Source of the DNA: Dehalococcoidia bacterium
GTDB taxonomy: Bacteria > Chloroflexota > Dehalococcoidia > Lucifugimonadales > Australimonadaceae
NCBI GenBank assembly: GCA_965261385.1
Contig: CBDHDB010000001.1
Coordinates: 737,145 to 801,144, forward strand
Reading direction: 5' to 3'
Length of the DNA: 64,000 bases
Position 1 is the stretch's first letter. Every line of letters starts with the position of its first letter. The translations under genes and the position numbers were made by a program. Shown here in pieces: positions 4,602-64,000 of the stretch. The notes below the pieces were generated by a model that saw nothing but the letters and a program-made list of their open reading frames with translations, was not told where the DNA came from and searched no databases.

Positions 4602-6476
<1,875 letters not shown>

Positions 6477-26000: not shown

Positions 26001-26242
26001 TCTTTCGCCTCCCAATAGCCGCGTGCCATGCGGAGCGCGTCCTTCACCGTTCCGTCGGGCCTGACGCCTGAGGGCAAGGCGAGCTCCGGAACGAGCACGA
26101 CGCGCTCCCTGTGCTCGCGGCAGTAGGCGGTGAGGCAGCTCTCGAAGGCCCGGCGAGTGCTCTGCTCGTTGGTGGAGCCGCCGAACTCGATGAGCTGTCG
26201 CAGCTCCTCGTAGTAGCGCTCGATGTGGGGGTGGTCGGGCAT
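23060..26242 (-). CDS. Fused restriction-modification enzyme (Type IIG / helicase-less Type ISP-like): N-terminal PD-(D/E)xK-like motif, gamma-class N6-adenine methyltransferase, C-terminal specificity domain
   Basis: Motif IV VIGNPPYNANQQ and an AdoMet-binding ILDPATGTGTF. The N-terminal RPDGTV...GYWEAKD fits PD...ExK. The C-terminal third resembles Type ISP/MmeI-type target-recognition regions. Confidence 0.75.
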   Translation of the reverse strand: MPDHPHIERYYEELRQLIEFGGSTNEQSTRRAFESCLTAYCREHRERVVLVPELALPSGVRPDGTVKDALRMARGYWEAKDTDDDLEAEIQRKLNRGYPRDNIIFEDSQTAVLYQNDGVAMWVDMRRPDELHRLIRRFLDYELPQIEEFRHAWSQFKTDLPEVLENLRGTIVEAEAGSTGYQQAAAAFLELCRQTIGPNVSEADVREMLLQHILTKDVFLRVFGEEQFHRENDVALRLDALEQTFFTGDIRRQAIDRLRAYYGAIGRADDEIADHAEKQQFLKAVYEDFYKTYNPAAADRMGVVYTPNEVVDFMVRGTDHLLRKHFGRGLADVNVQILDPATGTGTFITSLINFLPLDRLEHKYRHEMHANELAILPYYIANLNIEYTYKERTGRYLEFPNLCFVDTLDNMGWQQTGATGAAVQRQSAFNLGGLSTENWLRVQEQNEKTISVVIGNPPYNANQQNENDNNKNREYPEIDRRISDTYIKASTAQKTKQYDMYKRFIRWASDRLDDDGIIAFVTNRAYLEARQDDGFRQVVGKEFSELYILDLGSDVRRNPKIAGTTHNVFGIQTGVAIGFFVRDSSKTGGCGIHYARREDAELAIDKLAYLRQAKLNELAFESILPDVEHNWLKQTDTDFGSLLPLANRQTKYAKHISEERAIFSLSALGVNTARDGWVYDFEISNLRAKVLFFADTYNRLLAQDDDSYDTVIKWSEATRNHFNRGRRIIYTEQWLTQSLYRPFVAKHYFADVVMNDRLTSNHYRIFGPDLYHPNEVINFCVNGNAFYALAAGYLTDWHFTGDTQCLPLYRYTEHGKRVSNITEWGLRQVNDHYRKEWGKDFENVAGKDGITAEQIFAYTYAVLHDPVYRHDYAVDLLREFPRLPLYHDFDIWARMGQELLDLHIGFESAEPYPLEREETGKEPGKPKLHADKEHSVIVLDDATRLTGVPPDAWRYRLGNRSALEWVLDQYKERKPKDPTIAERFDTYRFADHKERVIDLLRRVCAVSVKTMDIVDGMAYWDGDDLVVYGDRDKHEWAMLGMADWFSRPDDPDWEAAWSET

Positions 26243-26251
26243 GGGCGGCGA

Positions 26252-28069
26252 TTATAGCAAGCCGCTCCTTTGGCCCACTCTCCCCCGCGCTTTGCTGCGC
26301 TCGCGCTTCCCCTCCCGCACCTTCCGGCGCTGCGCGTCCGCCGACCAACCAAACCCTAGCGCGCCGCCCCGCCGCGACATTTGCCCATTGCCCAATCCCC
26401 CTGCGCCCCCTACGATGGATTGCTCGTCATACCTCGATTGGAGAACCCAACCACGGGCGCGGGACTTCTTCCCTTCCTCCCCCGTCTGCGGGGGAGGTAC
26501 CGGTAAGGCAATAGCAACGGACTCGTCAAGGGGGACGCCCAAGGTGAGGAGCAGGTTGTTGTCCCGGCCGATCACAACCTCATCCACCACCATCTGGAGG
26601 ACCTCCCTGCGCTGAGCGGGGGTCAGATCGTCCATCCCCTCGCCAACCTCCCCCGCCCAGGTGAGGATCCCCTCCATCAGGGCCCGCTTCTGCGCCCCGC
26701 TCGCCTCCCTGGCGCGGTAGTCGTCCAGCTTTGCCCGCAGACTCTCCAGCCGCTCGGTGATGAACTTGCGCTGCAGGTCGAGCTGATTCTCGGTGATCTT
26801 CCCCGACACGTACAGCCTGATGGCCCGGTCTTCTTCCGACTGGACCCGCCTCAGGTCCCGCTCTGTCCTTGCGACCTCTTCGGCTGACCCCCCGTCTTCC
26901 TGCACGTCCAGGGCCTCGATGCCGGCGACGATGAGGCCAGGGTTCTGCAGGACGTTCTTCACCTCGCTCCAGACCAGTTCCTCCAACCGCTCCGCCCGGA
27001 TGAAGGGATGCTCCCTGCAGCGCAGGCGGTGCTTCTGCATGCCGTAGCAGTAGTAGTACCGCTGAGGAGGGTCGAGCTCGTACCGGTAGACCTTGCCGTT
27101 GCGCGTGATCTTGTTGCTGTTGTTCGTCTTTCCTCCGAAGAGCATCCCGCACTCGGCGCACCGGACGAGATGCTGCAACAGGTAGAACACCTTGGTGTTC
27201 CGCTTGGACCTGCTCAACCGCTGCTTCTTGAGGGCCTGCGCCCGGTCCCAGGTCTCCTCGTCCACCAGCGGCGTGACCGGGACCTTTATCCAGGTCTCTT
27301 GAGGCTGCGCGTAGACCCTCGTCCCGTCTTCCGTCGCAACATGCCGGGCCCTGCCAAACCACCAGGCGCCCTTGTAGGCCTCGTTGCCCAGAATGCGGTG
27401 AACGCGTGCTTCTTGCCACCGCGCGTTGGGCTTGCGCATGGGGATTTCCTCCTCGATCAGCTGCCAGGTGATGGACGCCGCGCCCATCCCCTCGTGGACG
27501 TACTGGCGGAAGATGCGCCGCACGACCTCGGCCTCGGCCTCGTCAATCTCAGGCCGGCCGTCGTCGCCGGTCCGGTAGCCGTAGGGGAGCGTGCCGGTCG
27601 GCACGCGGCCCTGCTTGGCCGCCCCGCGCCTGCCCATGGCCGAGCGCTCCCGGAAGTTGTCCAGCTCGATCTTTCCGATGGCGGCCATCAGGCCGAAGGT
27701 CTTCATGTCGATGGCGTCCATGACGGCCTCAATCCCTATCTGGTAGGCCTCGACGACCTCCATGAGAGCGGCGGCGGGGAACATGCCCCGGCTGAGGCGG
27801 TCCGACTTCCAGCAGACGATGGTGTCGAACAAACCCTGCTTGGCGTCGGCCAGCATCCGCTGGAACTCGGGGCGCTTCTTCGACCAGCCCCGGCCGATCT
27901 CCTGGTAGCGCGCGGTGATGGTCAGCCCCTTGCGCTCGCAGTAGGCCTCCATCTCGATGGCCTGCTCGGAGAGGGAGGTCTTGTCCTCCTCGGCCTGGCT
28001 CTTGTCCGAAACGCGGGCGTAGATGGCCGCTCGCTGTCCCTGTAGTTGCTGCGTCTTAGCTCTCGGCAT
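26252..28069 (-). CDS. Large serine recombinase (integrase)
   Basis: The catalytic N-terminus AAIYARVSDKSQ...SLSEQ, recombinase domain and zinc-ribbon CAECG...CYG, and coiled-coil are present. ATG 28069 is preceded by AGGAGG. The last ~90 codons look low-complexity. Confidence 0.9.
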   Translation of the reverse strand: MPRAKTQQLQGQRAAIYARVSDKSQAEEDKTSLSEQAIEMEAYCERKGLTITARYQEIGRGWSKKRPEFQRMLADAKQGLFDTIVCWKSDRLSRGMFPAAALMEVVEAYQIGIEAVMDAIDMKTFGLMAAIGKIELDNFRERSAMGRRGAAKQGRVPTGTLPYGYRTGDDGRPEIDEAEAEVVRRIFRQYVHEGMGAASITWQLIEEEIPMRKPNARWQEARVHRILGNEAYKGAWWFGRARHVATEDGTRVYAQPQETWIKVPVTPLVDEETWDRAQALKKQRLSRSKRNTKVFYLLQHLVRCAECGMLFGGKTNNSNKITRNGKVYRYELDPPQRYYYCYGMQKHRLRCREHPFIRAERLEELVWSEVKNVLQNPGLIVAGIEALDVQEDGGSAEEVARTERDLRRVQSEEDRAIRLYVSGKITENQLDLQRKFITERLESLRAKLDDYRAREASGAQKRALMEGILTWAGEVGEGMDDLTPAQRREVLQMVVDEVVIGRDNNLLLTLGVPLDESVAIALPVPPPQTGEEGKKSRARGWVLQSRYDEQSIVGGAGGLGNGQMSRRGGALGFGWSADAQRRKVREGKRERSKARGRVGQRSGLL

Positions 28070-28544
28070 AACTGCCTCCTCTCGTTCGTATCCGTAGAAA
28101 CCAAAAAGTCCCGCCTCCTGCCGGGAGCGGGTCTGCGAGCGGTAGAATACGCATCGCATCACCTGATCCAGCAGGTGGAGCCACGGCCCGGGGTGTTCAC
28201 GCACCGCCGGGCCAACCTCTACTTGAAAGCGTATCCCAGCCGCCTCAGGCAGTCAAAGGGGCGTTGTCACAACCCCGCATATGCAATCAGGCTATAGCAT
28301 TTCGCTGGACTCTCGCCTCTTCGATCAGGACTTCAGAGGTGACTCGCGTTTGATCCCTTCCTATCCTTGTTCGTCTGCCAAAATAGACAAGCCTGGCCCC
28401 TTCGCGTTAGTTGTAAGGCGCGGCAGAATCGTGGATTGCCATTTGCTATCCAGTTCACGTTCGCGTTACTGAGGATGTCTAACTCTGCGTTATGCGAGGG
28501 GCAGTTCGGAATTGCACTATGTCTAGGCCGGACGCAGATTTGTC

Positions 28545-49658: not shown

Positions 49659-50165
49659 GTGCGCCGCGTCACGCGGCATAGGATTCCCGATTTAGTCAGG
49701 AGAGATTCGGAGGAAGTCTCTGGGCCAACCGACCCACCTGGCGGCGAAAGCCAAAGGGGACAACAGCATGTCGGTAAAGCGGCTACAGCCTGAAAGCGTT
49801 GTAGGGCTGGTTCCGCAAGGCCCGCGCGATACGGTGAAAGCTGGATTGCTTGAACCCCAGTTCCCAAGCGGTGAAATCGGCACCCACCGGTAGAACGCTT
49901 GCAACCCGGTGCCACTCATTACGACGGTCTGTAGCGTGGACTGTTGCACCTCCGATGAGTGGGCGATGACCGATGAGGCCTATTCAAGGGGACGAACGGG
50001 GCACCTAAGTCGTGCTATCACGTCCTATGTCAACGGAACGCGGGATTGCCTACGGGGGGAGACCCCCACGGCAACGGAGCCCTCGTAGTAGTCCGAGCCG
50101 GGGAAAGCCCGGCACATGGCGAAGGAGGGCAGGTGTCAACGACGGAATACGACAGAGAGGTACTC

Positions 50166-51941
50166 ATGATGAGAACAGCCGAAACTGTACTGAACGTCAT
50201 ACGCGAACGCGGAGAACGAGGATTGCCGCTGGAGAACATCTATCGGCTACTGTACAACCGGAACCTGTACCTGCGGGCCTACGGTCGTCTCTACTCAAAC
50301 CAGGGAGCGATGACCAAGGGCACCACCGCAGAGACCGTGGACGGCATGTCACTGGCGAAAATCAACCGCATCATCGACGAGCTTCGTTACGAGCGGTTCC
50401 GGTGGACGCCGGTGCGCCGGGTCAGCATCCCCAAACCTAACGGGACGACCCGCGCCCTGGGCATACCGACGTGGACGGACAAGCTGCTGCAAGAGGTCAT
50501 CCGGATGATTCTGGAGGCCTACTACGAGCCGCAGTTCTCCGACCACTCTCACGGCTTCCGGCCCGACCGGGGATGCCACACCGCCTTAAACGAGGTGGTC
50601 ACTCACTGGACCGGTGCCCGCTGGTTCGTCGAGGGAGACATCAAGGGGTGCTTTGACAACATCGACCACGAGGTCCTGTTGTCGGTGTTGAGCGAGAAGC
50701 TCCACGACAACCGATTCCTACGCCTGCTCAAGTACCTACTGAAGGCAGGCTACCTTGAGGACTGGACATACGGCCGCACATTGAGCGGTACGCCGCAAGG
50801 TGGCGTGGTCAGCCCCATCCTCGCTAACGTCTACCTAGACCGGTTGGACAAGTTCGTCGAAACAGTGCTCATTCCAGCCCACACCCAAGGCACAGAACGA
50901 AGGCGCAATCTCACATGGAAAGCGTTGAACAGTCAAATGTCCTATCACCGGGGAAGGGGAAACCATGCGCAGGCGTTGGGACTGCGAAAGCAGATGCAAC
51001 AATTGCCATCAGGAGACCCCAACGACCCTGGCTACCGACGACTGCGATATGTCCGCTACGCGGACGACTTCGTGCTGGGCTTTATCGGGCCAAAGGCCGA
51101 AGCCGGGCAGATCAAGGATTCCTTGGAGACATTCCTGCGCGACACGCTCAAGCTGGAGCTATCCACGGAGAAAACTCTTATCACCCACGCCACCAGCCAG
51201 GCGGCGCGGTTCCTCGGTTACGAACTCATAAACCAACAAGCCAATGATAAGCACGACCCTACTGGGCGACGCAAAGTCAATGGCCGTATCGGATTACGGG
51301 TTCCCGCTAAAGTCATCGAACAACACTGCAGCGCCTACATGGGCAACGGCAAGCCGGCACACCGCGGCGGACTCATACACGATGATGACTTCTCCATCGT
51401 GAGCAGGTCCCAAGCGGAATTCCGGGGCGTCATTCAGTACTATCTCTTGGCCCTCAATGTCTCCCGTCTCGGGAGGTTACAGTGGGTCATGAGCCAGTCG
51501 CTGACCAAGACCCTTGCGGCAAAGCACAAGACCACACGCCGTGAAGTGCTTCGACGCTATAAGAGCGTCGCACAGACCGAGCATGGGGAACGTGCCTGCC
51601 TCAAGGTCGTGGTAGAGCGGGGCAATGGGAAACGCCCACTGGAGACGCAGTTCGGCGGCATACCCCTGAAGCGGAATAGGCAGGCCATCCTCGTAGACCA
51701 ACAGCCTCAACGGTACAGGTTCCACCGCAACGAGCTTATCAAACGGCTCCTAGCGGACGAATGCGAGTTGTGCGGGTCAACAGTGGACATACAAGTTCAC
51801 CACGTCCGCGCGCTTCGCGACCTGAACGTGAAAGGCCAAGGCCAAAAGTCCGAGTGGATACAAATCATGGCCGCAAGGCGACGCAAGACCCTCGTGGTCT
51901 GCCAACTCTGCCACATGGACATCCACGCAGGGCGCAAGTAA
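50166..51941 (+). CDS. Group II intron-encoded protein: reverse transcriptase / maturase / HNH endonuclease
   Basis: RT motifs RALGIPTWTDKLLQEV, HGFRPDRGCHTAL and YVRYADDFVLG. The HNH is CELCGS..VHHVRALRDL...CQLCHMDIHAG. I chose the start at ATG 50166 (MMRTAETVL). Confidence 0.9.
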   Translation: MMRTAETVLNVIRERGERGLPLENIYRLLYNRNLYLRAYGRLYSNQGAMTKGTTAETVDGMSLAKINRIIDELRYERFRWTPVRRVSIPKPNGTTRALGIPTWTDKLLQEVIRMILEAYYEPQFSDHSHGFRPDRGCHTALNEVVTHWTGARWFVEGDIKGCFDNIDHEVLLSVLSEKLHDNRFLRLLKYLLKAGYLEDWTYGRTLSGTPQGGVVSPILANVYLDRLDKFVETVLIPAHTQGTERRRNLTWKALNSQMSYHRGRGNHAQALGLRKQMQQLPSGDPNDPGYRRLRYVRYADDFVLGFIGPKAEAGQIKDSLETFLRDTLKLELSTEKTLITHATSQAARFLGYELINQQANDKHDPTGRRKVNGRIGLRVPAKVIEQHCSAYMGNGKPAHRGGLIHDDDFSIVSRSQAEFRGVIQYYLLALNVSRLGRLQWVMSQSLTKTLAAKHKTTRREVLRRYKSVAQTEHGERACLKVVVERGNGKRPLETQFGGIPLKRNRQAILVDQQPQRYRFHRNELIKRLLADECELCGSTVDIQVHHVRALRDLNVKGQGQKSEWIQIMAARRRKTLVVCQLCHMDIHAGRK

Positions 51942-52067
51942 TCCGCAATCGCACCCGTCGGTAGTATCTGACCTCAGACAACTGAGGCCAGAGCAGGTGT
52001 AACAATGTCATTCCGCTGGGATTGATGATACACTACGAGGCATAATGCGTCCTTGGAGTGCTGATTC

Positions 52068-52445
52068 ATGCCAATAGGACCTCTGCTCTTAGCGAGTGTA
52101 CCGTGGACAGAGCTTATCAAAGCTGCTCCTCGGATGATGGAATCTGCCATAAAGCTCTACGAAAACGTGAGCGGTCGGCAACCACGACGCCCATCACGAG
52201 GTACCACCACGGTTGATGACATTCCCGCCTTGCGCGAAGACGTAACAGAACTCCAGAGACATCTAGATATGTTGGAGAGCACTGATAAAACCCAGGCCGA
52301 ATTGATCAAAACCCAGGCCGAATTGATCGCCGAGTTGATTCGGCATCAGGCGTCCTTAGCGCGCTGGATAATCGTGCCAACGCTAACCTCGGTCGTGACG
52401 GGTATCGTCGCAATAGCTGCTCTCGTCGTTGTCGTCCTACAATAA
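52068..52445 (+). CDS. Low-GC extra ORF inside the intron: coiled-coil protein with a C-terminal TM anchor
   Basis: 125 aa. A heptad region contains the duplicated TQAELIK (a 2 x 21-nt tandem repeat at 52287-52328), and the C-terminus IIVPTLTSVVTGIVAIAALVVVVL is hydrophobic. The ORF lies between the IEP stop and domain V. Confidence 0.5.
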   Translation: MPIGPLLLASVPWTELIKAAPRMMESAIKLYENVSGRQPRRPSRGTTTVDDIPALREDVTELQRHLDMLESTDKTQAELIKTQAELIAELIRHQASLARWIIVPTLTSVVTGIVAIAALVVVVLQ

Positions 52446-52628
52446 GAAGGAAAAGTAGTCCCGACATTTGCAACCATTCATGCCGGGGCCATCGGGCCTA
52501 GACTCGGTAATCCTCCCAGATAGGACGTCCCGACCCCATCGCGTGCCCCCCCTCGGTCACCCTCGCGCCCATTAGCGTAGGGTGTTGGCCGAAAAAGACG
52601 AGACCTTCCGACGTATGAAGACACTGGA

Positions 52629-52662
<34 letters not shown>

Positions 52663-52725
52663 GGAGGGGGGCCGACGGAAAAGTGCTCTGATAACTCGGA
52701 GTAACTCGCCGGCGGCCTACCCTAC

Positions 52726-53054
52726 ACACCAACGGCGGGACGGCCGTCACCCAGCTGCGGCTGGCCACCGACCGTCCTCGCCAGAACGGGGAGACGGAGA
52801 CCGACTGGCACACCGTCATCTGCTGGGCCAAGTTGGCCGAGGCCGTCAACCAGTACGTCCACAAGGGCGACCGGCTCTACGTCGCCGGTCGGCTGGCCCA
52901 GAACAGCTACGAGACCTCCGACGGCCAGCGCCGCCACAACACCGAGGTCCACGCCGCCGAGGTCGTCTTCCTCGACTCCCGCAACGGGGCCAAGGCCACG
53001 GCGGACACCACAGAGGCTGTCCCGGCTGGGCAGGCGGCCGACTCCCCCTTCTAG
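52726..53054 (+). CDS. ssb: ssb copy 3, exon 2
   Basis: The sequence resumes ..(Y)TNGGTAVTQLRLATDRPRQNGETETDWHTVICWAKLAEAV... in frame with exon 1 and ends DSPF. Confidence 0.8.
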
Positions 53055-53825: not shown

Positions 53826-54464
53826 ATGCAAGCGACAGACCGCGCCCCCCACCCCGAAGACCTGTTCACCATCAATGCCGGCGGCTTCTCCGCCACCGCC
53901 GACGCCTTCGCCCGCGACCCCGGCTCCGACGGCCTCTGGTTCCTCTCCATGCTCGGTTCCCAGACGGCGGTAAAGGCCATCTGGGCCTCCCTCCTCAAGC
54001 AGCCGCCCGACCCCGCCCACCTCATCCGCGGCGCCGACGGGATGGCGCTCTCGGGGGGTTACCAGCGCTGCGTCATCCCCCCGGAGACCGTGGGGACCTG
54101 GACGACGAAGATCGCCCGGCTGCCGGTCTCCGGCGGCTGGCACGCGATGGTCTACACGACCCTCGCCGAGTTCGGCTCGGACCGCGACGCCTTCCTCCTG
54201 CTGGCCCAGAGCGCGGAGGACGCTCCGGCGCTCCACCACCGCTTCCTCGACCGCCGGAGCCCGCTGCCCCTGCACCGCTCCTGGTCGGACTGGCTCTGGG
54301 ACCGGGGCCTCCGGAGCGGCGAGGTGGTCCCCCTCCAGTCCGTGGGGCTCGCGGCCTACCGGTGCGACCCCGACGGCGAGCAGTTACGGGACGACCTCTC
54401 CGAGGCCGTGGCGTCGGGAGTCCTGACGCTGCCCGAAGAGGCGCCCGTTGCGGCGGCTGCGTAA
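53826..54464 (+). CDS. Hypothetical protein
   Basis: 212 aa with an AAGGAGA RBS. No motif recognised. Confidence 0.5.
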   Translation: MQATDRAPHPEDLFTINAGGFSATADAFARDPGSDGLWFLSMLGSQTAVKAIWASLLKQPPDPAHLIRGADGMALSGGYQRCVIPPETVGTWTTKIARLPVSGGWHAMVYTTLAEFGSDRDAFLLLAQSAEDAPALHHRFLDRRSPLPLHRSWSDWLWDRGLRSGEVVPLQSVGLAAYRCDPDGEQLRDDLSEAVASGVLTLPEEAPVAAAA

Positions 54465-54537: not shown

Positions 54538-55107
54538 ATGATCGATCACCAGCACGACGACGGCGGCCGGGAAGCCGCCGGCTACCGGGGCAAGACGGGC
54601 GACTGCGTCGTCCGCGCCATCGCCATCTGCGCCCGCCAGGACTATCGGACCGTCTACCTCACGATGGCCGAGCACATGAAGCGCAACGGCTACGCCGCGA
54701 GCGGCAACGCCTACGCGATACGGGAGCGCAACCGCAAAGCGCCCCGCCGCAAGGGCCAGTTCACCGCCCGGCGCGTCCAGGACCGCGTCCTCGAGCTCTA
54801 CGGCTTCCAGAAGGTCCGCCTCCCGGCGGGAGCGCGCCCGACCTTCACTGAGGCGCACCGCCGCTACGGGGACTGCATCGTCGGCACGACGAAGCACGCG
54901 GCGGCCGTCGTGGACGGGGCGCTGCGCGACATCTTCGACGGCCGCACCTACGAGTGGGCCAAGCCCCGGACGGAGTCCGCGTGGGACGTCTTCCGCCCGG
55001 CGGAACAGGCCGGCTTCGAGACGCGCGAGCGCAAGGCCCAGTCCGTCTGGGTGGAGACCTCCAGAGGGCAAGAGACAGACGAGACAGAGAAAGGAGCGAC
55101 GATATGA
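54538..55107 (+). CDS. Hypothetical protein with a possible Cys/His (papain-like) dyad
   Basis: ATG 54538 follows the CACACGCAGGAGA leader. The protein contains GDCVVRAIAI near the N-terminus and TKHAAAVVDG about 125 aa later. The stop has an ATGA overlap with the methyltransferase start. Confidence 0.45.
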   Translation: MIDHQHDDGGREAAGYRGKTGDCVVRAIAICARQDYRTVYLTMAEHMKRNGYAASGNAYAIRERNRKAPRRKGQFTARRVQDRVLELYGFQKVRLPAGARPTFTEAHRRYGDCIVGTTKHAAAVVDGALRDIFDGRTYEWAKPRTESAWDVFRPAEQAGFETRERKAQSVWVETSRGQETDETEKGATI

Positions 55108-56141
55108 GACTAGCGGCACAGGCCAAGGGGGGCTTCTACCCCACGCCGCCCCGCGTGATCGACCTGATCGCGGGGCTGGTCTCCGCCCCGGTCAGCTACC
55201 GCGGGCGGGGCCAGGAGGCGCTCCGCATCCTCGACCCCTGCTGCGGGGCCGGTGATGCGGCCGCCCGGCTGGCGGAGCGTCTGGGCAAACGCAACGGCCC
55301 GCCCATCGAGACCTTCGGGGTGGAACTGCACCGGGAGCGGGCGCAGGAGGCGTCGGAGCGGCTGGACCGCGCCCTCGCCGCCGACCTCTTCCAGACCTCC
55401 GTCGCCAACGGGGCCTTCGGCCTCCTGTTTCTGAATCCGCCCTATGACTACGATTCGGAAAACAGGCGGACGGAGCACGCCTTCCTCGTCCAATGCACCC
55501 GCTATCTGGCGGAGGACGGCCTGCTGGTCTTCATCGTTCCCCGCCAGCGGCTGGAAGTCTCCGCCCGGTACCTGGCCTCCCACTACCGGAATATCCGCTG
55601 CTGGGCGTTCCCCAGCCCGGAACGGGAGGTCTTCGACCAGGTGGTCCTCATGGGCTGCCGCCGGGCGGAGCCGCACCTCGACACCCACGCCGAGGCGCAG
55701 GTGCTGGAGTGGGCGGCGGGGGAGCTTGAGGAACTCTCGCGTCAGCCCTACCCCGTCGTGGACGCCCCCGCCGCGCCGGCGGGCGAGGTCCTCTTCGCCA
55801 ACCGCACCGTCGACCCCCTGGCGGCCGCTGCCGAGGCGCGGCGGTCGGGGCTGTGGGCCAGCGCCGGGGTGACCGATTCCCTCTGGCCCGCCAAGGATGC
55901 AAAGACCCGTCCGCTGATGCCGCTGCGGCGGGGCCACATGGCCATGCTGGTGGCGGCGGGCTTCCTGGACAACCTCTGCCTGGAGGCCAACGGCAGCCGC
56001 ATCCTGGTCAAGGGCAGGACCTCCAAGGAGGTCGTGCTGGCCGAGGAGACGGAGACCGCCGAGGTCTACCGGGACCGGCTGAAGACCACCGTCGTCGCCC
56101 TCGACCTGGACGGCGGCGTCATCACCGACATCGCCGCCTGA
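55104..56141 (+). CDS. Orphan N6-adenine DNA methyltransferase (NPPY)
   Basis: Motif I ILDPCCGAGDAA and motif IV LLFLNPPYDYD. No cognate nuclease is adjacent. Confidence 0.75.
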   Translation: MRLAAQAKGGFYPTPPRVIDLIAGLVSAPVSYRGRGQEALRILDPCCGAGDAAARLAERLGKRNGPPIETFGVELHRERAQEASERLDRALAADLFQTSVANGAFGLLFLNPPYDYDSENRRTEHAFLVQCTRYLAEDGLLVFIVPRQRLEVSARYLASHYRNIRCWAFPSPEREVFDQVVLMGCRRAEPHLDTHAEAQVLEWAAGELEELSRQPYPVVDAPAAPAGEVLFANRTVDPLAAAAEARRSGLWASAGVTDSLWPAKDAKTRPLMPLRRGHMAMLVAAGFLDNLCLEANGSRILVKGRTSKEVVLAEETETAEVYRDRLKTTVVALDLDGGVITDIAA

Positions 56142-57354: not shown

Positions 57355-59637
57355 ATGGACCTGGCAGGATTCATCGACACGTACAAGGAAGCGATCGCCC
57401 GGCGGGTGGTCGAGTCCTACCCGCCCCTCTACCGGCCCTCCGACAACGGACGGCCCCTCCCCCTCCTCCTCCGCTCCCCTCTCGGCGCCCAGCGCGACGC
57501 CATCCAAGGCGCGGCCCTCTCCCTCGAAGCCCACCGGGGCACGACCGTCGTCGGCGAGATGGGCACCGGCAAGACCTTCATCGCCGCGGCAGCCGCCCAC
57601 ATGGCGGGCTTCAAGCGGGTCCTCGTGCTCTGCCCGCCCCACCTCGTCCGCAAGTGGAAGCGGGAGGTGGAGGAGACGGTCCCCGGCGCCCAAGCCGCCA
57701 TCGTGTCCTCCATCACCGACCTGGAGAAGCTCCGGCTCTCCACCGGCCCCGGCCCCCTCTTCGCCGTCATGTCCCGCGAGCGGGCGAAGCTGTCCTACCG
57801 CTGGCAACCCGCCGTCGTCGAGCGGTGGGCCGTCTCGGGCGGCAGGCTCATCCGGGCCGAGGAGACGGGGGAGCCCTTCAGAGTCCCCTGCTGCCCGGTC
57901 TGCTCCCGCCAGGCCGTGGACAAGGACACCGTGCCCCTGACGCCGGAGGAGATGTCGCGCAGGCGGCGCAGCTGCGCCCGGTGCGGCTCGCCCCTCTGGC
58001 AGGCCGACGTCCGGGGCCCCCGCCGCTACCCGTTGGCCGACTATGTCAAGCACCGGATGAAGGGCTTCTTCGACCTGCTTGTCGGGGACGAGGTGCATGA
58101 ATATAAGGGAAGGGGTTCCGCCCAAGGCGTCGCCGCCGGCGTGCTGGCCGACGCCTGCGGCAAGTCCCTCACCCTGACCGGCACGCTGCTGGGAGGGTAT
58201 TCGAGCACCTTGTTCCACCTCCTCTACCGGTTCTCCCCGGAGATCCGGACGGAGTTCGGCCGCTCCGACGAGCGCCGCTGGATCGAGCGGTACGGGTTCG
58301 AGGAGTTCACCCTCGGGAAGGACGACGGCGAGGCCGTCGAGGACGGGCGGTTCAGCCGCCGGAAGAAGTACCGGAAGGTGGTGCGGGAGCGGCCGGGGCT
58401 CGCCCCCTCCGCCCTCTTCCACCTGATCGGCAACAGCGTCTTCCTGCGGCTCTCCGACGTGGCGTCGGGCCTGCCGCCCTACGAGGAGCAGGTGCTCCTC
58501 TCGACCATGGACCGGGAGCCCGACGCGATGGGCCTCTCCCAGCGGGGGGCCTACGACCGGGTCTTCAACGCCCTGCGCCATGCCCTGGCGCAAGCGTTGG
58601 CGAAGGGCTCCAAGCGGCTGCTGGCCACCTACCTGCAGACGCTGCTGGCCTACCCCGACGGCTGCACGCGGGGCGAGACGGTCTTCGACCCGGCGACGGG
58701 CATCCCCATCGTCCAGGTCCCTCCGCTGTCGGAGGAGAAGCTCTACCCGAAGGAGCAGGCGCTGGTCGACCTCGTGGCGGCCGAGCGGCTCGAAGGGAGG
58801 AAGGTGCTGGTGTACGCCACCCACACGGGGACGCGGGACATCACCGGGCGGATGGACGACATCCTGACGCGGCACGGGTTCCGGGTCGCGGTGATGAAGG
58901 CCGACGCCGTGGCCCCCGACCGGCGGGAGGCCTGGGTGGCGGACCGGGTGAAGGAGGGCGTCGACGTCCTCGTCTGCCACCCCCGGCTGGTGCAGACCGG
59001 CCTGGACCTGATCGACTTCCCGACCATCGTCTGGTTCGAGACCGATTACAGCGTTTACGTCATGCGGCAGGCGTCGCGCCGGTCGTGGCGCATCGGGCAG
59101 ACCCGCCCGGTGAAGGTGGTGTTCATGTCCTACCGGAACAGTCTGCAGGCCGACGCCCTGAAGCTGGTGGCGAAGAAGCTGCAGAGCTCCCTCGCCGTCG
59201 AGGGGGAGTTGCCGGAGGACGGGCTTGCGGCCTACGGCGACGACGGCGACGACCTGATGCTGGCCCTGGCCCGCAGGATCGTCAGCGGCGACGAGGACGA
59301 AGACGAGGCGGAGACGGTGGAGGCGGTATTCGCCCAGGCCAGGGACGCCGAGGCCAGCGCCGAGGAATACCTGGTGGACGATGACTGGGAGGCCGTCGAA
59401 GTGGAGCCGGAGACCATGGCGGTCCATCACGACGAGGCTGGAACGGCCGCAGACAGCGGTTGCGGCGGCGAGGCCGTCGGGCCGCAGCGGTCGCTGTTCT
59501 CGTGGACGGAGTTCCTCGCGGAGGAGCAGGGCCGCAGCCGCAGCCGGAAGCCGAAGCCCGCTTCCGCGTCCCTCTTCGAGTGGGCGATGAGCATGGAGCA
59601 GGAGCGAGAGGAAGAGCCGGTCGGCGCGGGACGCTAG
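57355..59637 (+). CDS. SNF2/DEAD-like helicase with an inserted zinc-ribbon
   Basis: Motif I GEMGTGKTF, motif II DEVHEYKG, the insert CCPVCS...CARCGS, and helicase-C motif RRSWRIGQTRPV. ATG 57355 follows AAAGGAG. Confidence 0.85.
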   Translation: MDLAGFIDTYKEAIARRVVESYPPLYRPSDNGRPLPLLLRSPLGAQRDAIQGAALSLEAHRGTTVVGEMGTGKTFIAAAAAHMAGFKRVLVLCPPHLVRKWKREVEETVPGAQAAIVSSITDLEKLRLSTGPGPLFAVMSRERAKLSYRWQPAVVERWAVSGGRLIRAEETGEPFRVPCCPVCSRQAVDKDTVPLTPEEMSRRRRSCARCGSPLWQADVRGPRRYPLADYVKHRMKGFFDLLVGDEVHEYKGRGSAQGVAAGVLADACGKSLTLTGTLLGGYSSTLFHLLYRFSPEIRTEFGRSDERRWIERYGFEEFTLGKDDGEAVEDGRFSRRKKYRKVVRERPGLAPSALFHLIGNSVFLRLSDVASGLPPYEEQVLLSTMDREPDAMGLSQRGAYDRVFNALRHALAQALAKGSKRLLATYLQTLLAYPDGCTRGETVFDPATGIPIVQVPPLSEEKLYPKEQALVDLVAAERLEGRKVLVYATHTGTRDITGRMDDILTRHGFRVAVMKADAVAPDRREAWVADRVKEGVDVLVCHPRLVQTGLDLIDFPTIVWFETDYSVYVMRQASRRSWRIGQTRPVKVVFMSYRNSLQADALKLVAKKLQSSLAVEGELPEDGLAAYGDDGDDLMLALARRIVSGDEDEDEAETVEAVFAQARDAEASAEEYLVDDDWEAVEVEPETMAVHHDEAGTAADSGCGGEAVGPQRSLFSWTEFLAEEQGRSRSRKPKPASASLFEWAMSMEQEREEEPVGAGR

Positions 59638-59724: not shown

Positions 59725-59931
59725 ATGGGACGCATCTTTGTCTACGACGACCGCGAGTTCCCCGACCCCGACCCCCAGATGAGTGTCGACCAGGTGAAGG
59801 CAACGCTCAGCGACTTCTACGGGGAGATCGCCAACGCCTCGGTGAAGGAGACAACGCGGGGCAACGACACCATCTACGAGTTCCAGCGGCGGGTGGGCAC
59901 CAAGGGCGCCTTCACCCACGCCAAAGAGTAA
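59725..59931 (+). CDS. PRTRC system protein C-like ubiquitin-like (beta-grasp) protein
   Basis: 68 aa. The pattern IFVYDDREFPDPDPQMSVDQVKATLSDFYGEIANA...YEFQRRVGTKG matches my recollection of the PRTRC_C family (TIGR03738). Confidence 0.65.
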   Translation: MGRIFVYDDREFPDPDPQMSVDQVKATLSDFYGEIANASVKETTRGNDTIYEFQRRVGTKGAFTHAKE

Positions 59932-59943
59932 GGAGGGAGTCCG

Positions 59944-60174
59944 ATGGACAACCGGACCTTTGCCGGTCTGCTGGCAGCGACCCCGCCGGCGGACCTGAGA
60001 ATCCTCGAGCTCACGGCGGAGCTCACACGGCCCGACGGCGCCTTCGACCTGGACGCCGCGGCCGCCCGGCAGCATGAGGTGGAGCTGGCCTGTGTCCAGG
60101 CGCAGGACTACGCCGCGGCCACGGGCCGCCTGCTGGAGGCGTTGCGATGGCAGCTGCGGCCCCGGCGCAGCTGA
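59944..60174 (+). CDS. Small hypothetical protein within the PRTRC-like cassette
   Basis: 76-aa ORF packed tightly between protein C and the next gene. Confidence 0.4.
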   Translation: MDNRTFAGLLAATPPADLRILELTAELTRPDGAFDLDAAAARQHEVELACVQAQDYAAATGRLLEALRWQLRPRRS

Positions 60175-60983
60175 GCGGCCTGGCGAACCTGCTCCTGCGG
60201 CGTCCGCCGTCGCTGCGGGATCTGGTCACGCTGATCGGGTACGCCGACGACTACGCATGGTTCGCGGGGCTGGCGCGCCGCCTCTTTCCCCAGGAGGCGG
60301 AGGATGCGCTTTCGGCCCCCGACATACGCACGAGGGTGGAGCGCTTCGCCCAGCTCTTCGGAGAGCGGCACTTCCCCCTCTACGCCCCGTTCTTCGAGTT
60401 CTTCATGGACGAGGGGGACGAACCCCCCTGGACCTGGCTGCGGAGGGGGATCCCCTTCGAGCTGATGGGCTTCGGCTACGACGCCCCCCACGAGCTGTGG
60501 GACGGCTACCGCGAGGGGCTCTCGGCCATGGTCCTCCTGGCCAGGCCCCCCGATTCCTCCTACGAGGGACCCGACGGGCTGCGGGTGGCTTGGCTGGAGT
60601 CGGCCGCCGCCCGCATCCCGCAAGAGACCCTGCGCCGCATTCCCGAGGGCGGCATACCCCTGGACGACCTCGCCGAGGCGCTCAAGGGGACCGGCTTCGA
60701 GGGGGCGGCGCAAGCCTGCTCCTGGGTCTTCGCCGAGACAGGCAACTTCTTCCTGGACGCCAGCTACGACGACGGGATGTACGAGGGGTTCTCCGATCCC
60801 TGGGAGGACGAGGTGATCGAGGCGGGCACGGAGGAGTGGCGCAAGGCCGCCGCCGTCATGGACGCGGTGGGCAAGCTTGCCGACTGGCTGGAGGAGGACC
60901 TCCCCGGCCGCTTCGCCGAGATGCTGGACTTCGTCCTGGGGCGGCTCCCCAATCAAACACGGGAGGATAGCGATGAGTGTTGA
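60147..60983 (+). CDS. Hypothetical protein at the position of PRTRC protein F
   Basis: 278 aa and acidic. It overlaps both neighbours. The assignment is by position only. Confidence 0.45.
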   Translation: MAAAAPAQLSGLANLLLRRPPSLRDLVTLIGYADDYAWFAGLARRLFPQEAEDALSAPDIRTRVERFAQLFGERHFPLYAPFFEFFMDEGDEPPWTWLRRGIPFELMGFGYDAPHELWDGYREGLSAMVLLARPPDSSYEGPDGLRVAWLESAAARIPQETLRRIPEGGIPLDDLAEALKGTGFEGAAQACSWVFAETGNFFLDASYDDGMYEGFSDPWEDEVIEAGTEEWRKAAAVMDAVGKLADWLEEDLPGRFAEMLDFVLGRLPNQTREDSDEC

Positions 60984-61680
60984 AGTCGACGCAACCCAAT
61001 GGTCCCTGCCGGGCCCGGCGGACATGCCCAGGGACACGCTCAAGGCGCAGCTGGAGGTCTACAACGAGACCATCCTGCTGCGGGGCTTCGAGGAGGACTC
61101 CACCTGGGTGCGGACCGTCTCGGCGGACGCCATCGCCAACGTGTTCACCCAGCACCTGGGGTCCTCCTCGGGACTGCTGCCCCAGGATGCCCTCTGGTGG
61201 AACCAGGGCGAGACCGGACAGGTGGTGGCCCTGTGGCGGCCGCCGCAGGTCTGGTCCGCGGCCCTGCAACGGGAGCCCTTCAAGCCTCCCGCCCGGCTCC
61301 GGCTCCCGATGCCGGGGCTGGTCTTCGTCTGCTCGCCGGGCCGCGCGCCCTGGGTCTACGCCGCAACGAGCCGGCCCACCGACCCCGAGCAGCATCTCTT
61401 CCGGGCCCCTGCCTTCAACGTCTTCAGGGACGGGCGGGTCTGCCCCGGAAGCCACCGGTTCCCCGAGGAGGTGGGACTGATACCGGAGTCCTTCTTCCAG
61501 TCCTACTTCTCGCTGACCGGCGATTCACGGGACCGCTCGAAGAAGCGCCCCGACAACCTGCAGGCGCTATGGGAGGAGCTCGATGGAACAACTGCATACC
61601 CGGTTGAGGACCTGGTTCCCCAGTGCACGGTGGGCCAGGCGATGGCGGTCTCCGAGGGGAGACGCGGCTACCGGCGCTAG
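60973..61680 (+). CDS. PRTRC system protein B-like (prokaryotic E2-like)
   Basis: ATG 60973 follows GGGAGGA. The motif LFRAPAFNVFRDGRVCPGSHRFP...FFQSYFS resembles the PRTRC_B / Prok-E2_B pattern, with one conserved Cys. Confidence 0.65.
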   Translation: MSVEVDATQWSLPGPADMPRDTLKAQLEVYNETILLRGFEEDSTWVRTVSADAIANVFTQHLGSSSGLLPQDALWWNQGETGQVVALWRPPQVWSAALQREPFKPPARLRLPMPGLVFVCSPGRAPWVYAATSRPTDPEQHLFRAPAFNVFRDGRVCPGSHRFPEEVGLIPESFFQSYFSLTGDSRDRSKKRPDNLQALWEELDGTTAYPVEDLVPQCTVGQAMAVSEGRRGYRR

Positions 61681-61696
61681 CGGGGCGCCGGGGCCG

Positions 61697-62329
61697 GTGG
61701 GCTACCTGGTCAACCACCCCGGCGGCCTCGCCGGCGTCCAGGGCATCGGCTACGACTACGTGCTGGGATCGGGGGGCGTCTACGTCCAGTCCCGGAGCGC
61801 CGACCTGACGGCGCGGGTCCTGGTCGCCCCCGGCGCGGTTCGCGGGCTCGCTCCCGTCGCCGAGAAGGTGGAATTCACCCACGGCCCCATCCCTGCCTGC
61901 CTCTTCGAGCTGGGGCTGCGCTGGTTCCAGGACGCCCCGGACACCGAGCGGTTCTTCGCCGTGCGGTGGGGCGGGGATGCCTACCGGCTGGTGGTTCCCC
62001 CACAGGCAGGCACCGCAACGAGACTCGCGTACCAGCCCCCCGCAGGGGTGGTCGCCGAGTTCCACTCCCACGGAGGCGCCCGCGCCTTCTTCTCGGCCAC
62101 CGACGACCGGGACGAGCAGGGCTTCCGCATCTACGGCGTCGCCGGACGCCTCGACGCTCCCCGGCCCGAGCTGCGGCTCCGGGTCGGGGTCTACGGCCAC
62201 TTCGCCCCGCTGGACTGGCCCCAGGTGTTCTGCGGCACGGAGCCGGGTCTCCGGCTCTTGGGCGATGGGCCGGGGCCGACACGCAACACCGACTGCATAC
62301 CCCAATCGAACGACAAGGAGGTGAACTGA
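61697..62329 (+). CDS. PRTRC system protein A-like JAB/MPN metallopeptidase
   Basis: JAMM-like EFHSHGGARAFFSATDDRDEQGFRIYGV. The GTG 61697 start is tentative. Confidence 0.7.
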   Translation: MGYLVNHPGGLAGVQGIGYDYVLGSGGVYVQSRSADLTARVLVAPGAVRGLAPVAEKVEFTHGPIPACLFELGLRWFQDAPDTERFFAVRWGGDAYRLVVPPQAGTATRLAYQPPAGVVAEFHSHGGARAFFSATDDRDEQGFRIYGVAGRLDAPRPELRLRVGVYGHFAPLDWPQVFCGTEPGLRLLGDGPGPTRNTDCIPQSNDKEVN

Positions 62330-62331
62330 AG

Positions 62332-63147
62332 ATGCCCTACTACCTGGACAACGCATTCCTGCTCGACAACCCCTGGATCACCGTGGTCGGCTGCGGCGGA
62401 ACGGGCGGCTTCGTGGCCGAGGGCCTCTGCCGCCTCTTCCAGGGGCGGGAGGCCACCATCGTCCTGGTCGACCACGACCGGGTGGAGCCCCACAACCTGC
62501 TGCGCCAGAACTTCTACCCCGAGGACGTCGGAAAGTTCAAGAGCCAGGCCCTCGCCGACCGGCTGGCGCGGGCCTACCGGAGGCCCGTCGGCTACTCGGT
62601 CTACGCCTTCCGGGAGGAGGACTCCCGCCCCGATGGGGGCCGCTACCCCGGCCTTCCCTCCTACGGGAACTCCCTGCTCATCGGCTGCGCCGACAACGCC
62701 GCAGCGCGGCGGGCCATGGCCGAAAGCCTGCCGGGCGACCCGCATCGGTGGCTCATCGACGCGGGCAACGACACCAACTGGGGACAGGTATTGGTGGGCA
62801 ATGTCGCCGACGAGATTGCCTGGGACGAACCCGCCTTCACGGGCGAGACCTGCTCCCTGCTCCCCGCGCCCACGGTGCAGCGGCCCGACCTGCTGACCGC
62901 CGTGTCGACCAGACCGCCGGACGTGGACTGCGCGGCCGCCCTCGACCTCACCGACCAGGACCCGACCATCAACCAGATGATGGCGTCGCTGGTCTTACAG
63001 GTGGTCCGCCGCATGGCGGCGGGAACCTGCCCCTTCATGGGCCTCTACCTGGACATGGAGATGGGAACGGTCACACCGAGCTACGTCACCCCAGAGGCGG
63101 TGGCGCGGGTGGTGGGACCCGGCTCCGAGTGGGAAATATCGGCCTAG
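62332..63147 (+). CDS. PRTRC system ThiF-family E1-like protein
   Basis: Nucleotide loop VVGCGGTGGFVAEGL, then VDHDRVEPHNLLRQNFYPEDVGKFKSQALADRL. The start has an AAGGAGG RBS. Confidence 0.85.
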   Translation: MPYYLDNAFLLDNPWITVVGCGGTGGFVAEGLCRLFQGREATIVLVDHDRVEPHNLLRQNFYPEDVGKFKSQALADRLARAYRRPVGYSVYAFREEDSRPDGGRYPGLPSYGNSLLIGCADNAAARRAMAESLPGDPHRWLIDAGNDTNWGQVLVGNVADEIAWDEPAFTGETCSLLPAPTVQRPDLLTAVSTRPPDVDCAAALDLTDQDPTINQMMASLVLQVVRRMAAGTCPFMGLYLDMEMGTVTPSYVTPEAVARVVGPGSEWEISA

Positions 63148-63200: not shown

Positions 63201-63584
63201 ATGACTGACAAGAACGGAAACGCCACGATCTGGCAGGACAACCACAGCGGGCTCCGCAGGCACAAGCTGATGACCAAGGAGCTTGCCGACACCATCCCGC
63301 CCATGTACGCCAATGACGGCGCGGACGACCCCGACGCCGTCGTCGCCAGGGTGAAAATGTTCAGCCCGTACAACGGCTGGCGCTGGTACGTCACCGAGTG
63401 GGACGCCGAGACCGGAACGTGCTTCGGCCTCGTCGAGGGGTTCGAAGTTGAATTGGGCTACTTCGATCTCACGGAACTCTCGGAAGTGACCGTGTTCGGC
63501 AGCGTCCCCGCCGTGGAGCGCGACCTCTACTGGGCGCCGATGACCCTCGGCGAGATCAAGGAACAGTCGAGACTCGCGGCCTAG
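63201..63584 (+). CDS. DUF2958-domain protein
   Basis: IPPMYANDGADDPDAVVARVKMFSPYNGWRWYVTEWD...CFGLVEGFEVELGYFDLTEL...VERDLYW is the characteristic DUF2958 pattern seen on conjugative elements. Confidence 0.7.
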   Translation: MTDKNGNATIWQDNHSGLRRHKLMTKELADTIPPMYANDGADDPDAVVARVKMFSPYNGWRWYVTEWDAETGTCFGLVEGFEVELGYFDLTELSEVTVFGSVPAVERDLYWAPMTLGEIKEQSRLAA

Positions 63585-63621: not shown

Positions 63622-64000
63622 ATGCCCGACGAAACCGGAACGGAAACAACCCGCTCGGATGCTCCGAGCGCCGACGAGAGTCCCATCGGCGATGCGGCGG
63701 ACGGCACGGAAGCCGCGGTTGCCGATGAACAGGACGCCCCACAGGACCCGCAGGGTTCCGACGCTGCCGAGGAGCAGGCCGGTCCTCCGGACGACCTGAA
63801 GGTCGTCGTGTCTCTCAAGGGAGGCAGGGCCACCATCGGCGTGCAACAGCCCACGTCGGACCCATACATCGAGTCCTTCGACGACCGGGGCCTCTCCGGG
63901 CTGACGCAGGAGGTCCCGGCGGTGGTCGAACGGGCGAGGGCCAGGTGGGAGGACGAGCCCAGGCATCCGGCCCACGCGAGACCCGCTCCCCCGGCCAGGC
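63622..64000 (+). CDS. Hypothetical protein, 3'-truncated by window edge
   Basis: ATG 63622 follows AAAGGAG and the frame stays open to base 64000. The N-terminus is acidic and low-complexity, followed by KVVVSLKGGRATIGVQQP... This ORF is not in the supplied track because it has no stop in the window. Confidence 0.5.
   Translation, partial: MPDETGTETTRSDAPSADESPIGDAADGTEAAVADEQDAPQDPQGSDAAEEQAGPPDDLKVVVSLKGGRATIGVQQPTSDPYIESFDDRGLSGLTQEVPAVVERARARWEDEPRHPAHARPAPPAR

Follow-up and report, generated by a model that had tools for sequence, protein, structure and literature searches.

A divergent 6d/PRTRC-type ubiquitin-like cassette in the backbone of a Dehalococcoidia integrative and conjugative element

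We analyzed a 64,000-nucleotide stretch of DNA from a Dehalococcoidia bacterium (GenBank assembly GCA_965261385.1, contig CBDHDB010000001.1, positions 737,145 to 801,144 of the forward strand), referred to below as the window. Its plus strand carries six tightly packed genes at 59725–63147 for a ubiquitin-like protein (Ubl), two proteins designated u76 and u278, an E2-like protein (E2), a JAMM/JAB metallopeptidase (JAB) and a ThiF/E1-like adenylating enzyme (E1). We propose, at a probability of roughly 0.6, that this cassette is a self-contained Ubl-conjugation pathway of the 6d/PRTRC kind, that it forms a fixed backbone module in a Dehalococcoidia integrative and conjugative element (ICE) with a type IV secretion system (T4SS), and that it serves establishment of the element. 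The gene content of the cassette, its conservation, its catalytic residues and a processing signature in the Ubl are directly observed. Judged by sequence, the cassette is a divergent, Chloroflexota/cyanobacterial-type lineage of the known but functionally uncharacterised 6d/PRTRC family.

Since 2022, three bacterial Ubl pathways have been elucidated, namely Cap2/3 of the anti-phage signaling system based on cyclic oligonucleotides (CBASS), Bil and Bub. This leaves 6d/PRTRC as the main remaining bacterial Ubl family with E1, E2 and JAB for which we found no functional study in the literature, in agreement with the original prediction made from the window sequence; its prediction from genomes dates back to 2006. 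Members occur widely on mobile genetic elements, including plasmids in PLSDB, a prolific family of Dehalococcoidia ICEs and many cyanobacterial plasmids. The function of the family is stated to be unknown in a 2024 ICE paper, and papers from the Corbett laboratory treat CBASS, Bil and Bub (6E) but not 6d.

Gene content and coding evidence

All six open reading frames (ORFs) of the original prediction were recovered on the plus strand, together with every motif named for them (RRVGTKG, FNVFRDGRVCPGSH, EFHSHGG..SATDD and VVGCGGTGG). The Ubl (68 aa, 59725–59931) is followed by u76 (76 aa, helical and without a family, 59944–60174) and by u278 (278 aa, all-alpha, 60147–60983), which occupies the position of PRTRC protein F. 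E2 (235 aa, 60973–61680) likely starts at an ATG inside the ORF at 60877–61680. JAB, in which an N-terminal alpha+beta domain precedes the metallopeptidase, lies at 61583–62329 (248 aa from its ATG, or 210 aa from an alternative GTG at 61697), and E1 (271 aa, 62332–63147) likely starts at an ATG inside the ORF at 61966–63147.

The third-position GC content of the cassette frames is 86–92%, in a window of ~70% GC, which identifies these frames as coding; by the same comparison, the numerous ORFs on the opposite strand are GC artefacts. Starts and stops overlap or are separated by 2–12 nt and are preceded by Shine-Dalgarno sites of the GGAGG type, so that the genes look translationally coupled. 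A promoter and terminator scan of 57–64 kb, using a consensus that may not apply to Chloroflexota, returned zero plus-strand sites, a result that fits a single long operon.

One-genome-per-species collections contain 257 relatives of E2, and we compared the loci of the best 80 of these (L001–L080). All 80 are from metagenome-assembled genomes (MAGs) of Dehalococcoidia (Chloroflexota), with 81–92% identity in E2. A tblastn search of the 80 loci found u76 in 77 and u278 in all 80, at the same place and with 66–94% identity (78–94% for u76), and we therefore regard both as real genes.

Assignment to the 6d/PRTRC family

The 6d family was defined in 2006 by Iyer, Burroughs and Aravind (PMC1779556) as a fourth operon type, consisting of a β-grasp protein with a C-terminal Gly, a diverging α-helical protein, an E2-like Cys protein, a JAB protein with an N-terminal domain and an E1-like protein; PRTRC is the name given later in TIGRFAMs to its proteobacterial form. 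In Pfam, the Ubl matches Prok_Ub (4e-15), E2 matches Prok-E2_D (9.7e-18) and not Prok-E2_B as had been predicted, JAB matches Prok-JAB (1e-6) and E1 matches ThiF (3e-13). In NCBIfam, the Ubl passes the cut-off for PRTRC_C (TIGR03738; 48.4 bits, cut-off 45.95). The other three proteins stay below theirs: PRTRC_B (TIGR03737) is the best and only match of E2 (65.3 bits versus 131.45), JAB scores 52 bits against PRTRC_A (TIGR03735; cut-off 101.8), and PRTRC_ThiF (TIGR03736) is the best match of E1 (101.5 bits versus 144.75). The prediction of a PRTRC-type Ubl/E2/JAB/E1 cassette therefore stands in so far as each of the four core proteins finds its best NCBIfam match in PRTRC C, B, A or ThiF, with the curated threshold reached by C alone.

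Several further features agree with the 6d definition. The Ubl is a small predicted β-grasp protein with a conserved Gly near its C-terminus, as judged by the Prok_Ub match, Gly58 and Gly61, and the modelled topology; u278, all-alpha in its model, corresponds to the rapidly diverging, largely α-helical protein; about 120 residues precede the JAB core, in keeping with an N-terminal extra domain; and E1 consists of a ThiF domain only, with no rhodanese domain. The sole relatives of E1 in the PDB are generic E1 adenylation domains, and PDB sequence searches with the E2 and JAB profiles found nothing.

Neither NCBIfam nor Pfam models for ParB, D, E and F matched any of the window neighbours tested, and tblastn of the window with the Caballeronia ParB, E and F proteins gave a best E-value of 0.19. 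The first 0.4 kb of the last backbone gene lies inside the window, and no backbone gene follows it in the relatives. The assignment of the 278-aa protein to PRTRC F, which the original prediction raised tentatively, did not hold at the level of homology: hhalign against Caballeronia PRTRC_F gave a probability of 0.2%, an NCBIfam search of u278 and of 87 family members gave no match, and position and all-alpha character alone agree.

Outside Dehalococcoidia, the nearest relatives are cyanobacterial and Chlorohelix plasmid cassettes, with an E1 identity of ~30%, whose genes PGAP leaves nameless. A Subdoligranulum plasmid match was dropped, as it consists of a ThiF-like gene without a cassette. 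PRTRC protein C occurs on 232 PLSDB plasmid records, 138 of them from Pseudomonas, including many clinical P. aeruginosa plasmids of 320–555 kb. The view that PRTRC sits mostly on proteobacterial elements proved too narrow for the wider family, since 6d was already reported from proteobacteria, Bacillus, Anabaena and Bacteroides in 2006 (PMC1779556).

A precursor signature in the Ubl

First, we analyzed the C-terminus of the Ubl, which has a conserved core (residues 1–61) ending in RRVGTKG and a variable seven-residue tail, AFTHAKE. Across 126 Dehalococcoidia-type Ubls, the mean entropy is 0.37 bits in the core, 0.06 in RRVGTKG and 2.59 over the next seven positions. RRVGTKG is unchanged in 119 of 120 close relatives, in which the following seven positions are hypervariable, and none of the 126 proteins ends at the Gly. 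Gly58 and Gly61 are invariant across phyla. Homologues of the Prok_Ub type number at least 941. The tail had been singled out as an oddity of the window copy; most relatives, the canonical ones included, turn out to have an extension after the Gly, of 9 aa in Caballeronia, 3 aa in C. necator, R. pickettii and B. gladioli, and 36–69 aa in Hydrogenophaga, Ahniella and Manganitrophus.

Second, we compared the presence of an extension with that of a JAB gene in 18 cassettes read by hand. The extension is present in 13 of the 14 cassettes with a JAB gene and in none of the four without (Fisher one-sided p = 0.0016, for lineages that are not independent and with relatedness uncorrected). The JAB-less cassettes are those of a P. 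aeruginosa megaplasmid, pWW53, pQBR103 and a Parabacteroides plasmid, near which Pfam detects no JAB; the Pseudomonas PRTRC examples that we read have no JAB gene, and in them the Gly is the very last residue of the Ubl.

Third, natural in-frame fusions of the Ubl to u76 (138–145 aa) occur on plasmids of Leptolyngbya, Nostoc, Calothrix, Nodularia and other cyanobacteria, and one such fusion is found in an otherwise intact Dehalococcoidia cassette. The argument for processing that can be drawn from fused sequences is carried by the cyanobacterial fusions, which lie in plasmids of isolates. Taken together, the pattern of conservation, tail, fusions and JAB occurrence argues strongly that the Ubl would be made as a precursor and processed. 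The earlier suggestion that the adjacent JAB may trim it is strengthened by the entropy drop, the fusions and the JAB comparison.

Finally, an AlphaFold2 (AF2) model of a Ubl-u76 fusion relative predicts a β-β-α-β-β topology for the Ubl part, with a predicted local distance difference test score (pLDDT) of 74–80. The segment around the Gly is disordered in this model and the two domains are unpacked (predicted TM-score, pTM, 0.44). Among the top, non-significant Foldseek matches of the Ubl model, UBL and PB1 β-grasp domains are enriched. For protein C, this gives a β-grasp-like model of medium confidence with weak Foldseek support.

Catalytic residues of E2, JAB and E1

We aligned the window proteins with those of a Chlorohelix plasmid, three cyanobacterial plasmids and the canonical Caballeronia PRTRC (six members). 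In E2, the candidate catalytic residue Cys157 (RVCPGSH) does not vary among the members from Chloroflexota, cyanobacteria and proteobacteria. At Cys+4, at least 90% of the window clade retain a His, and the later ‘HP’ position is an Arg in the window protein. In JAB, Glu122, His161-x-His163, Ser171 and Asp174 are invariant across phyla, and in E1 the GxGGxG loop, Arg58/Gln59, Lys70, Asp121 and Cys200 are invariant in the six diverse members. As far as sequence conservation can tell, the catalytic equipment is complete across three phyla: the JAMM motif, the ATP and Arg-finger residues and Cys200 of E1, and Cys157 of E2.

These residues also bear on a non-conjugating chemistry, in which adenylation of the small protein by E1 would lead to sulfur transfer or to an MccB-type peptide modification, with E2 and JAB as structural proteins. 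In its favour, the size of E1 is nearest to ThiF, MoeB and MccB, and the E2 of this clade is without the conserved downstream His. We nevertheless consider it very improbable: no rhodanese, sulfurtransferase, cofactor or peptide-export gene lies in the conserved block, the Cys of E2 does not vary, the JAMM site is complete, and the precursor signature of the Ubl suits conjugation systems.

The conserved proteins u76 and u278

No Pfam, NCBIfam or PADLOC model matched u76 or u278. The AF2 model of the fusion relative predicts u76 to be helical (pLDDT 82–93), and genes for proteins of 72–83 aa occupy the same position in Ralstonia, B. gladioli, Azospira and Pseudanabaena. The family of u278 has 527 representatives among clusters at 50% identity. 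Its AF2 model, based on an 87-sequence alignment, is entirely helical (pLDDT 91.6, pTM 0.86), and Foldseek searches with it returned nothing significant (best E-values 1.1 in the PDB and 2.6 in BFVD). Environmental contigs encoding u278 at 30–40% identity have the same six-gene order.

As a separate observation, a hydrophobic or aromatic tip (..LPMVF, ..LPLIF, ..VPPCF, ..IRGF, ..HSGF, ..GIWG) terminates several of the small proteins encoded between C and F as well as some long Ubl extensions. The small proteins concerned are at 4712–4930 in both L106 and L107, at 4740–4976 in L102 and at 6442–6693 in L085, and the Ubl extensions at 4498–4815 in L100 and 4507–4917 in L101. The window u76 ends in ..LRPRRS and has no such tip.

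The host element and the place of the cassette in it

The window consists of host metabolic genes up to ~22.5 kb and of the mobile element thereafter. At the left end of the element (23060–28204), a Type ISP restriction-modification protein (1060 aa) lies beside the probable integrase, a large serine recombinase of 650 aa; the window contains no tRNA gene. The minus strand at 32.6–43.1 kb encodes a Replic_Relax relaxase, a coupling protein, VirB4, TrbL/VirB6 and a T4SS pilin. A plus-strand module follows in the order DnaG-type primase, Rad52-family protein, single-stranded DNA-binding protein (SSB), group II intron, SSB, RadC, a protein without a name, DUF6094 methyltransferase and SNF2, and continues with the cassette, a DUF2958 protein and one conserved gene that is cut by the window end.

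Within this module, the DUF6094-family methyltransferase (55104–56141, plus strand; PF19587, 9.7e-24) is kept in related loci, and the SNF2-type helicase (57355–59637, plus strand; ResIII and Helicase_C) lies upstream of the cassette there too. This bears out the prediction that the cassette directly follows an SNF2 helicase and a methyltransferase, and identifies the latter as DUF6094. The DUF2958 protein (63201–63584, plus strand; PF11171, 4.6e-8) is at the same position in ~75 of the 80 related loci, and its membership in the cassette system is uncertain. Between RadC and the methyltransferase lies a 212-aa protein (u212, 53826–54464), which is present in nearly all copies at 69–78% identity and matched no family. 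The prediction of an element with a monoderm-lineage T4SS was correct, but its host is a member of Dehalococcoidia and not a high-GC Gram-positive bacterium. The host lineage is monoderm and of high GC, but an actinobacterial host is rejected, as the best 80 E2 relatives are all from Dehalococcoidia.

The order SSB-RadC-u212-methyltransferase-SNF2-Ubl-u76-u278-E2-JAB-E1-DUF2958 is found in ~75 of the 80 loci. A single Dehalococcoidia genome may carry up to four ICE copies (e.g., OZ244718.1, with L025, L030, L063 and L066), and homology between copies of one genome stops just past the next gene, termed E-like. Since the order is fixed and the homology between copies ends after the E-like gene, we regard the cassette as backbone and not as variable cargo. 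Similar surroundings are seen in other phyla: cyanobacterial, Chlorohelix and proteobacterial plasmid cassettes adjoin SSB, RecG, Gp157, ParB, methylase, SNF2 or dnaN genes, SNF2 or helicase genes are also near the Caballeronia and Chlorohelix cassettes, and N-6 DNA methylase genes are near the PRTRC of Ralstonia, B. gladioli and Azospira.

This arrangement has to be weighed against a Bil-like role as anti-phage defence cargo, carried for the benefit of the host, with phage proteins as the targets to which the Ubl would be attached. The characterised bacterial E1/E2/JAB pathways (type II CBASS and Bil) all act against viruses, and Bub is suspected to do so (PMC11601596); moreover, the N-terminus of the window E1 matches CBASS Cap2 models, one relative has a CBASS operon beside the cassette, and authors of ICE surveys place PRTRC among defence genes. 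The cassette, however, sits in an invariant backbone in fixed synteny with SSB, RadC, the methyltransferase and SNF2; across phyla it lies on plasmids and ICEs beside DNA-processing genes and not in defence islands; and the Ubl, E2, JAB, u76 and u278 are without a match among the PADLOC models. A PADLOC scan of the cassette recognised no known defence system but only the generic E1 fold of CBASS E1-E2 models, and the matches to Cap2-type models cover residues 11–82 of E1 alone, which form the Rossmann part. On this evidence, defence cargo appears unlikely.

Several features of individual copies were noted. The window ICE copy contains a group II intron between its two SSB genes (49900–52730), of low GC content, with a reverse transcriptase/maturase/HNH ORF at 50046–51941 and an Rfam Intron_gpII match at 52627–52725; this match, to domain V/VI, overlaps the SSB ORF at 52695 at its 5′ end. 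The spacing from Rad52 to this SSB is 5.6 kb in the window and ~2.5 kb in related copies. Truncated or transposon-disrupted cassette copies exist in related genomes. Just past the shared backbone, there are arrays of diverged ~270–300 bp repeats (L025, 14400–16300; L063, 14400–20300; L066, 16200–17700), with 65–76% identity between units and loci. In an intact relative (L089, 9462–12450), the DUF2958 protein is fused to the E-like protein (324 aa), and a CBASS-like pair (SMODS/DncV-like and patatin) lies directly downstream on the opposite strand.

The damaged copies in related genomes, together with the intron inserted in the window ICE, could be taken as signs that the window copy is itself a decaying, non-functional relic. 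Its six ORFs, however, are intact and coupled, and strong purifying selection acts across the copies, which makes a relic most improbable.

The E-like gene and its terminal peptide

The E-like gene is the last gene of the backbone common to the copies. Its 5′ part, identified from its translation and from relatives, lies at 63622–64000 on the plus strand, where it is cut by the window end. The protein is ~165 aa in relatives, with an acidic, disordered N-terminus, a conserved core and a disordered tail ending in ..TLRLF. The gene was found in 62 related loci (at ~12.6–13.1 kb of L001–L080), with the LRLF end in 58 of the 62. The protein matched nothing in the HMM libraries. Homology to PRTRC_E was considered and rejected, as the hhalign probability was 0.2% with PRTRC_E and with the proteins encoded upstream in cyanobacteria, leaving a likeness of layout only.

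This layout, shared by the E-like protein, PRTRC_E and the product of the cyanobacterial gene upstream of the Ubl, consists of a folded core, a long disordered tail and a short hydrophobic end peptide. The terminal peptides are ..QISLF, ..QITLF and ..QMALL in cyanobacteria and ..NLASLFD, ..LDASLF and ..QASIFD in proteobacteria. The bacterial β-clamp-binding motif takes the forms QLSLF, QxxLF and xxxLF (PMC12309361), and we hypothesize from the resemblance that the E and E-like termini may be β-clamp-binding peptides. The gene dnaN adjoins the cassette on Azospira pAZI09 and is nearby on the P. aeruginosa megaplasmid pZYPA192.

The same peptides, and the presence of dnaN near the cassette on these two plasmids, could speak for a maintenance or addiction module, or for a regulator of partition or replication, in which the balance of conjugation and deconjugation would stabilise the element after its establishment and not at entry. 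A ParB-family gene heads the canonical PRTRC, an addiction-like role was proposed by Iyer et al., and 139 of the 232 PRTRC plasmids are typed as non-mobilizable. In the window, however, no ParB gene was detected and no toxin-like component is evident, and the neighbours (primase, SSB, Rad52, methyltransferase and SNF2) are typical of entry and establishment modules. We therefore judge a maintenance role to be quite unlikely.

Proposed mechanism and role

Based on these observations, we propose the following scheme for the cassette as a Ubl-conjugation pathway in the service of the element. JAMM/JAB would cut the pro-Ubl after Gly61 (RRVGTKG|AFTHAKE) and expose the glycine carboxylate; the ThiF-type E1 would adenylate Gly61 and probably load the Ubl onto Cys200; the Ubl would then be handed to Cys157 of the Prok-E2_D protein and attached to one or more target proteins, with u76 and u278 as presumed obligate partners in the role of an adaptor, an E3-like factor or the first substrate. 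JAB may also undo conjugates. The most likely beneficiary of the module is the mobile element: rather than being phage-defence cargo, the module would act on proteins of replication, of recombination or of the host when the DNA is established. We infer every chemical step in this scheme from conservation, and the targets and biological role from genomic context. Service to the mobile element is favoured because of the backbone status of the cassette, its DNA-processing neighbours here and in other phyla, and its lack of likeness to known defence systems.

Several points weigh against this proposal. The β-grasp fold of the Ubl is predicted from the Pfam match and a model of medium confidence, and the Foldseek matches of that model to UBL domains are not significant (best E-value 0.03). 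Two of the three Dehalococcoidia contexts checked for Ubl-u76 fusions are decayed copies and one is intact, for which reason these fusions were downgraded from strong evidence, and fused Ubl-u76 occurs in 0 of the 80 species-representative loci. The Azospira Ubl ends at the Gly despite the presence of a JAB gene, which suggests that JAB may have a second role such as deconjugation. In E2, the His of an F[NST]xH motif that follows the Cys in the five other sequences is replaced (FSLTGDS), and a His C-terminal to the Cys is described as ‘absolutely conserved’ in 6d E2 proteins by Iyer, Burroughs and Aravind (PMC1779556); with the downstream His absent in the clade, activity of E2 is not assured. 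Our literature search found no biochemical or genetic study of any 6d/PRTRC member. That the cassette may act at entry is suggested by its neighbouring genes.

A more specific version of the establishment role may be put forward tentatively, and we regard it as possible but doubtful. The cassette would be an establishment machine of conjugative elements that, after the DNA has entered a cell, attaches the JAB-matured Ubl to proteins of the replisome or of ssDNA processing, or to defence proteins of the host, with the E-like protein as recruiter. If true, this would be a bacterial, plasmid-borne counterpart of the ubiquitylation of PCNA or the replisome, and the first case in which a ubiquitin-like system is shown to work for horizontal gene transfer instead of immunity.

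The occurrence of such a cassette on an ICE will not surprise the specialist, and the window alone reveals no function; the value of the analysis lies in concrete predictions. Comparison with relatives yields the testable claims that: (i) the Ubl is a precursor matured by JAB, (ii) a ~75-aa helical protein and an all-alpha protein are core parts of the system, and (iii) the cassette moves together with genes for DNA entry and replication, not with defence islands. If the establishment role is true, it would represent a new class of function for bacterial ubiquitin-like signalling and possibly a handle on plasmid spread.

Comparison with known systems

The window cassette shares with 6d/PRTRC a Prok_Ub protein with a Gly in its C-terminal region, an α-helical protein, a Prok-E2_D protein with a Cys, a JAB protein and an E1 without rhodanese, as well as the gene order, carriage on a plasmid or ICE, and SNF2 or methylase genes close by. 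The canonical plasmid order of PRTRC is ParB-E-C-(F)-B-A-ThiF, and the PRTRC of R. pickettii, B. gladioli and Azospira has a nameless gene for 72–78 aa between C and F; the window order C, small protein, F position, B, A, ThiF is therefore general. The window cassette differs from PRTRC in that its B, A and ThiF proteins fall below the curated cut-offs that C passes, homologues of ParB, D, E and F are undetectable in it, the downstream His of E2 is absent, and the E-like gene lies downstream of E1, whereas PRTRC E lies upstream of the Ubl. The host element differs as well: it is an ICE of Chloroflexota whose recombinase is of the serine type, whose relaxase belongs to Replic_Relax and whose T4SS is of the monoderm type.

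Bub (formerly 6E/DUF6527; Ye et al. 2024, PMC11601596) resembles the window cassette in having separate Ubl, E1, E2 and JAB functions and a Ubl made as a precursor (predicted for the cassette), at times fused to a pathway partner; in Bub, BubCD uses its JAB domain to cut the BubAB pre-protein, and in the window cassette the corresponding cleavage is predicted. The fusion partner is the E2 in Bub and the 76-aa helical protein in the 6d relatives of the cassette. Bub forms Tyr/Ser oxyesters and has no catalytic Cys, whereas Cys200 of E1 and Cys157 of E2 are invariant here; unlike Bub, the cassette gives no DUF6527 match in Pfam, so that we do not class it as Bub.

Bil (BilABCD) likewise has Ubl, E1, E2 and JAB as separate genes. 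Comparison with Bil gave no PADLOC or Pfam match past the generic E1 fold, although PADLOC-DB 2.0.0 (2023) may hold no Bil models, and the window cassette differs in its E2 family (Prok-E2_D), in two extra obligate proteins and in its location in a mobile-element backbone and not in a defence island. Type II CBASS shares an E1 adenylation fold and a JAB peptidase with the cassette, whose E1 N-terminus matches Cap2 models; an E2-E1 fusion, SMODS/CD-NTase or effector is missing from the block, which sets the cassette apart from type II CBASS.

The window Ubl ends its core in the single Gly of G-[TA]-K-G, whereas eukaryotic ubiquitin and Ubl proteins end in Gly-Gly. In eukaryotic polyubiquitin, ubiquitin-ribosomal fusions and pro-SUMO/NEDD8, an extension or fusion is removed by a dedicated peptidase before E1 acts, and the processing proposed here is alike in its logic only.

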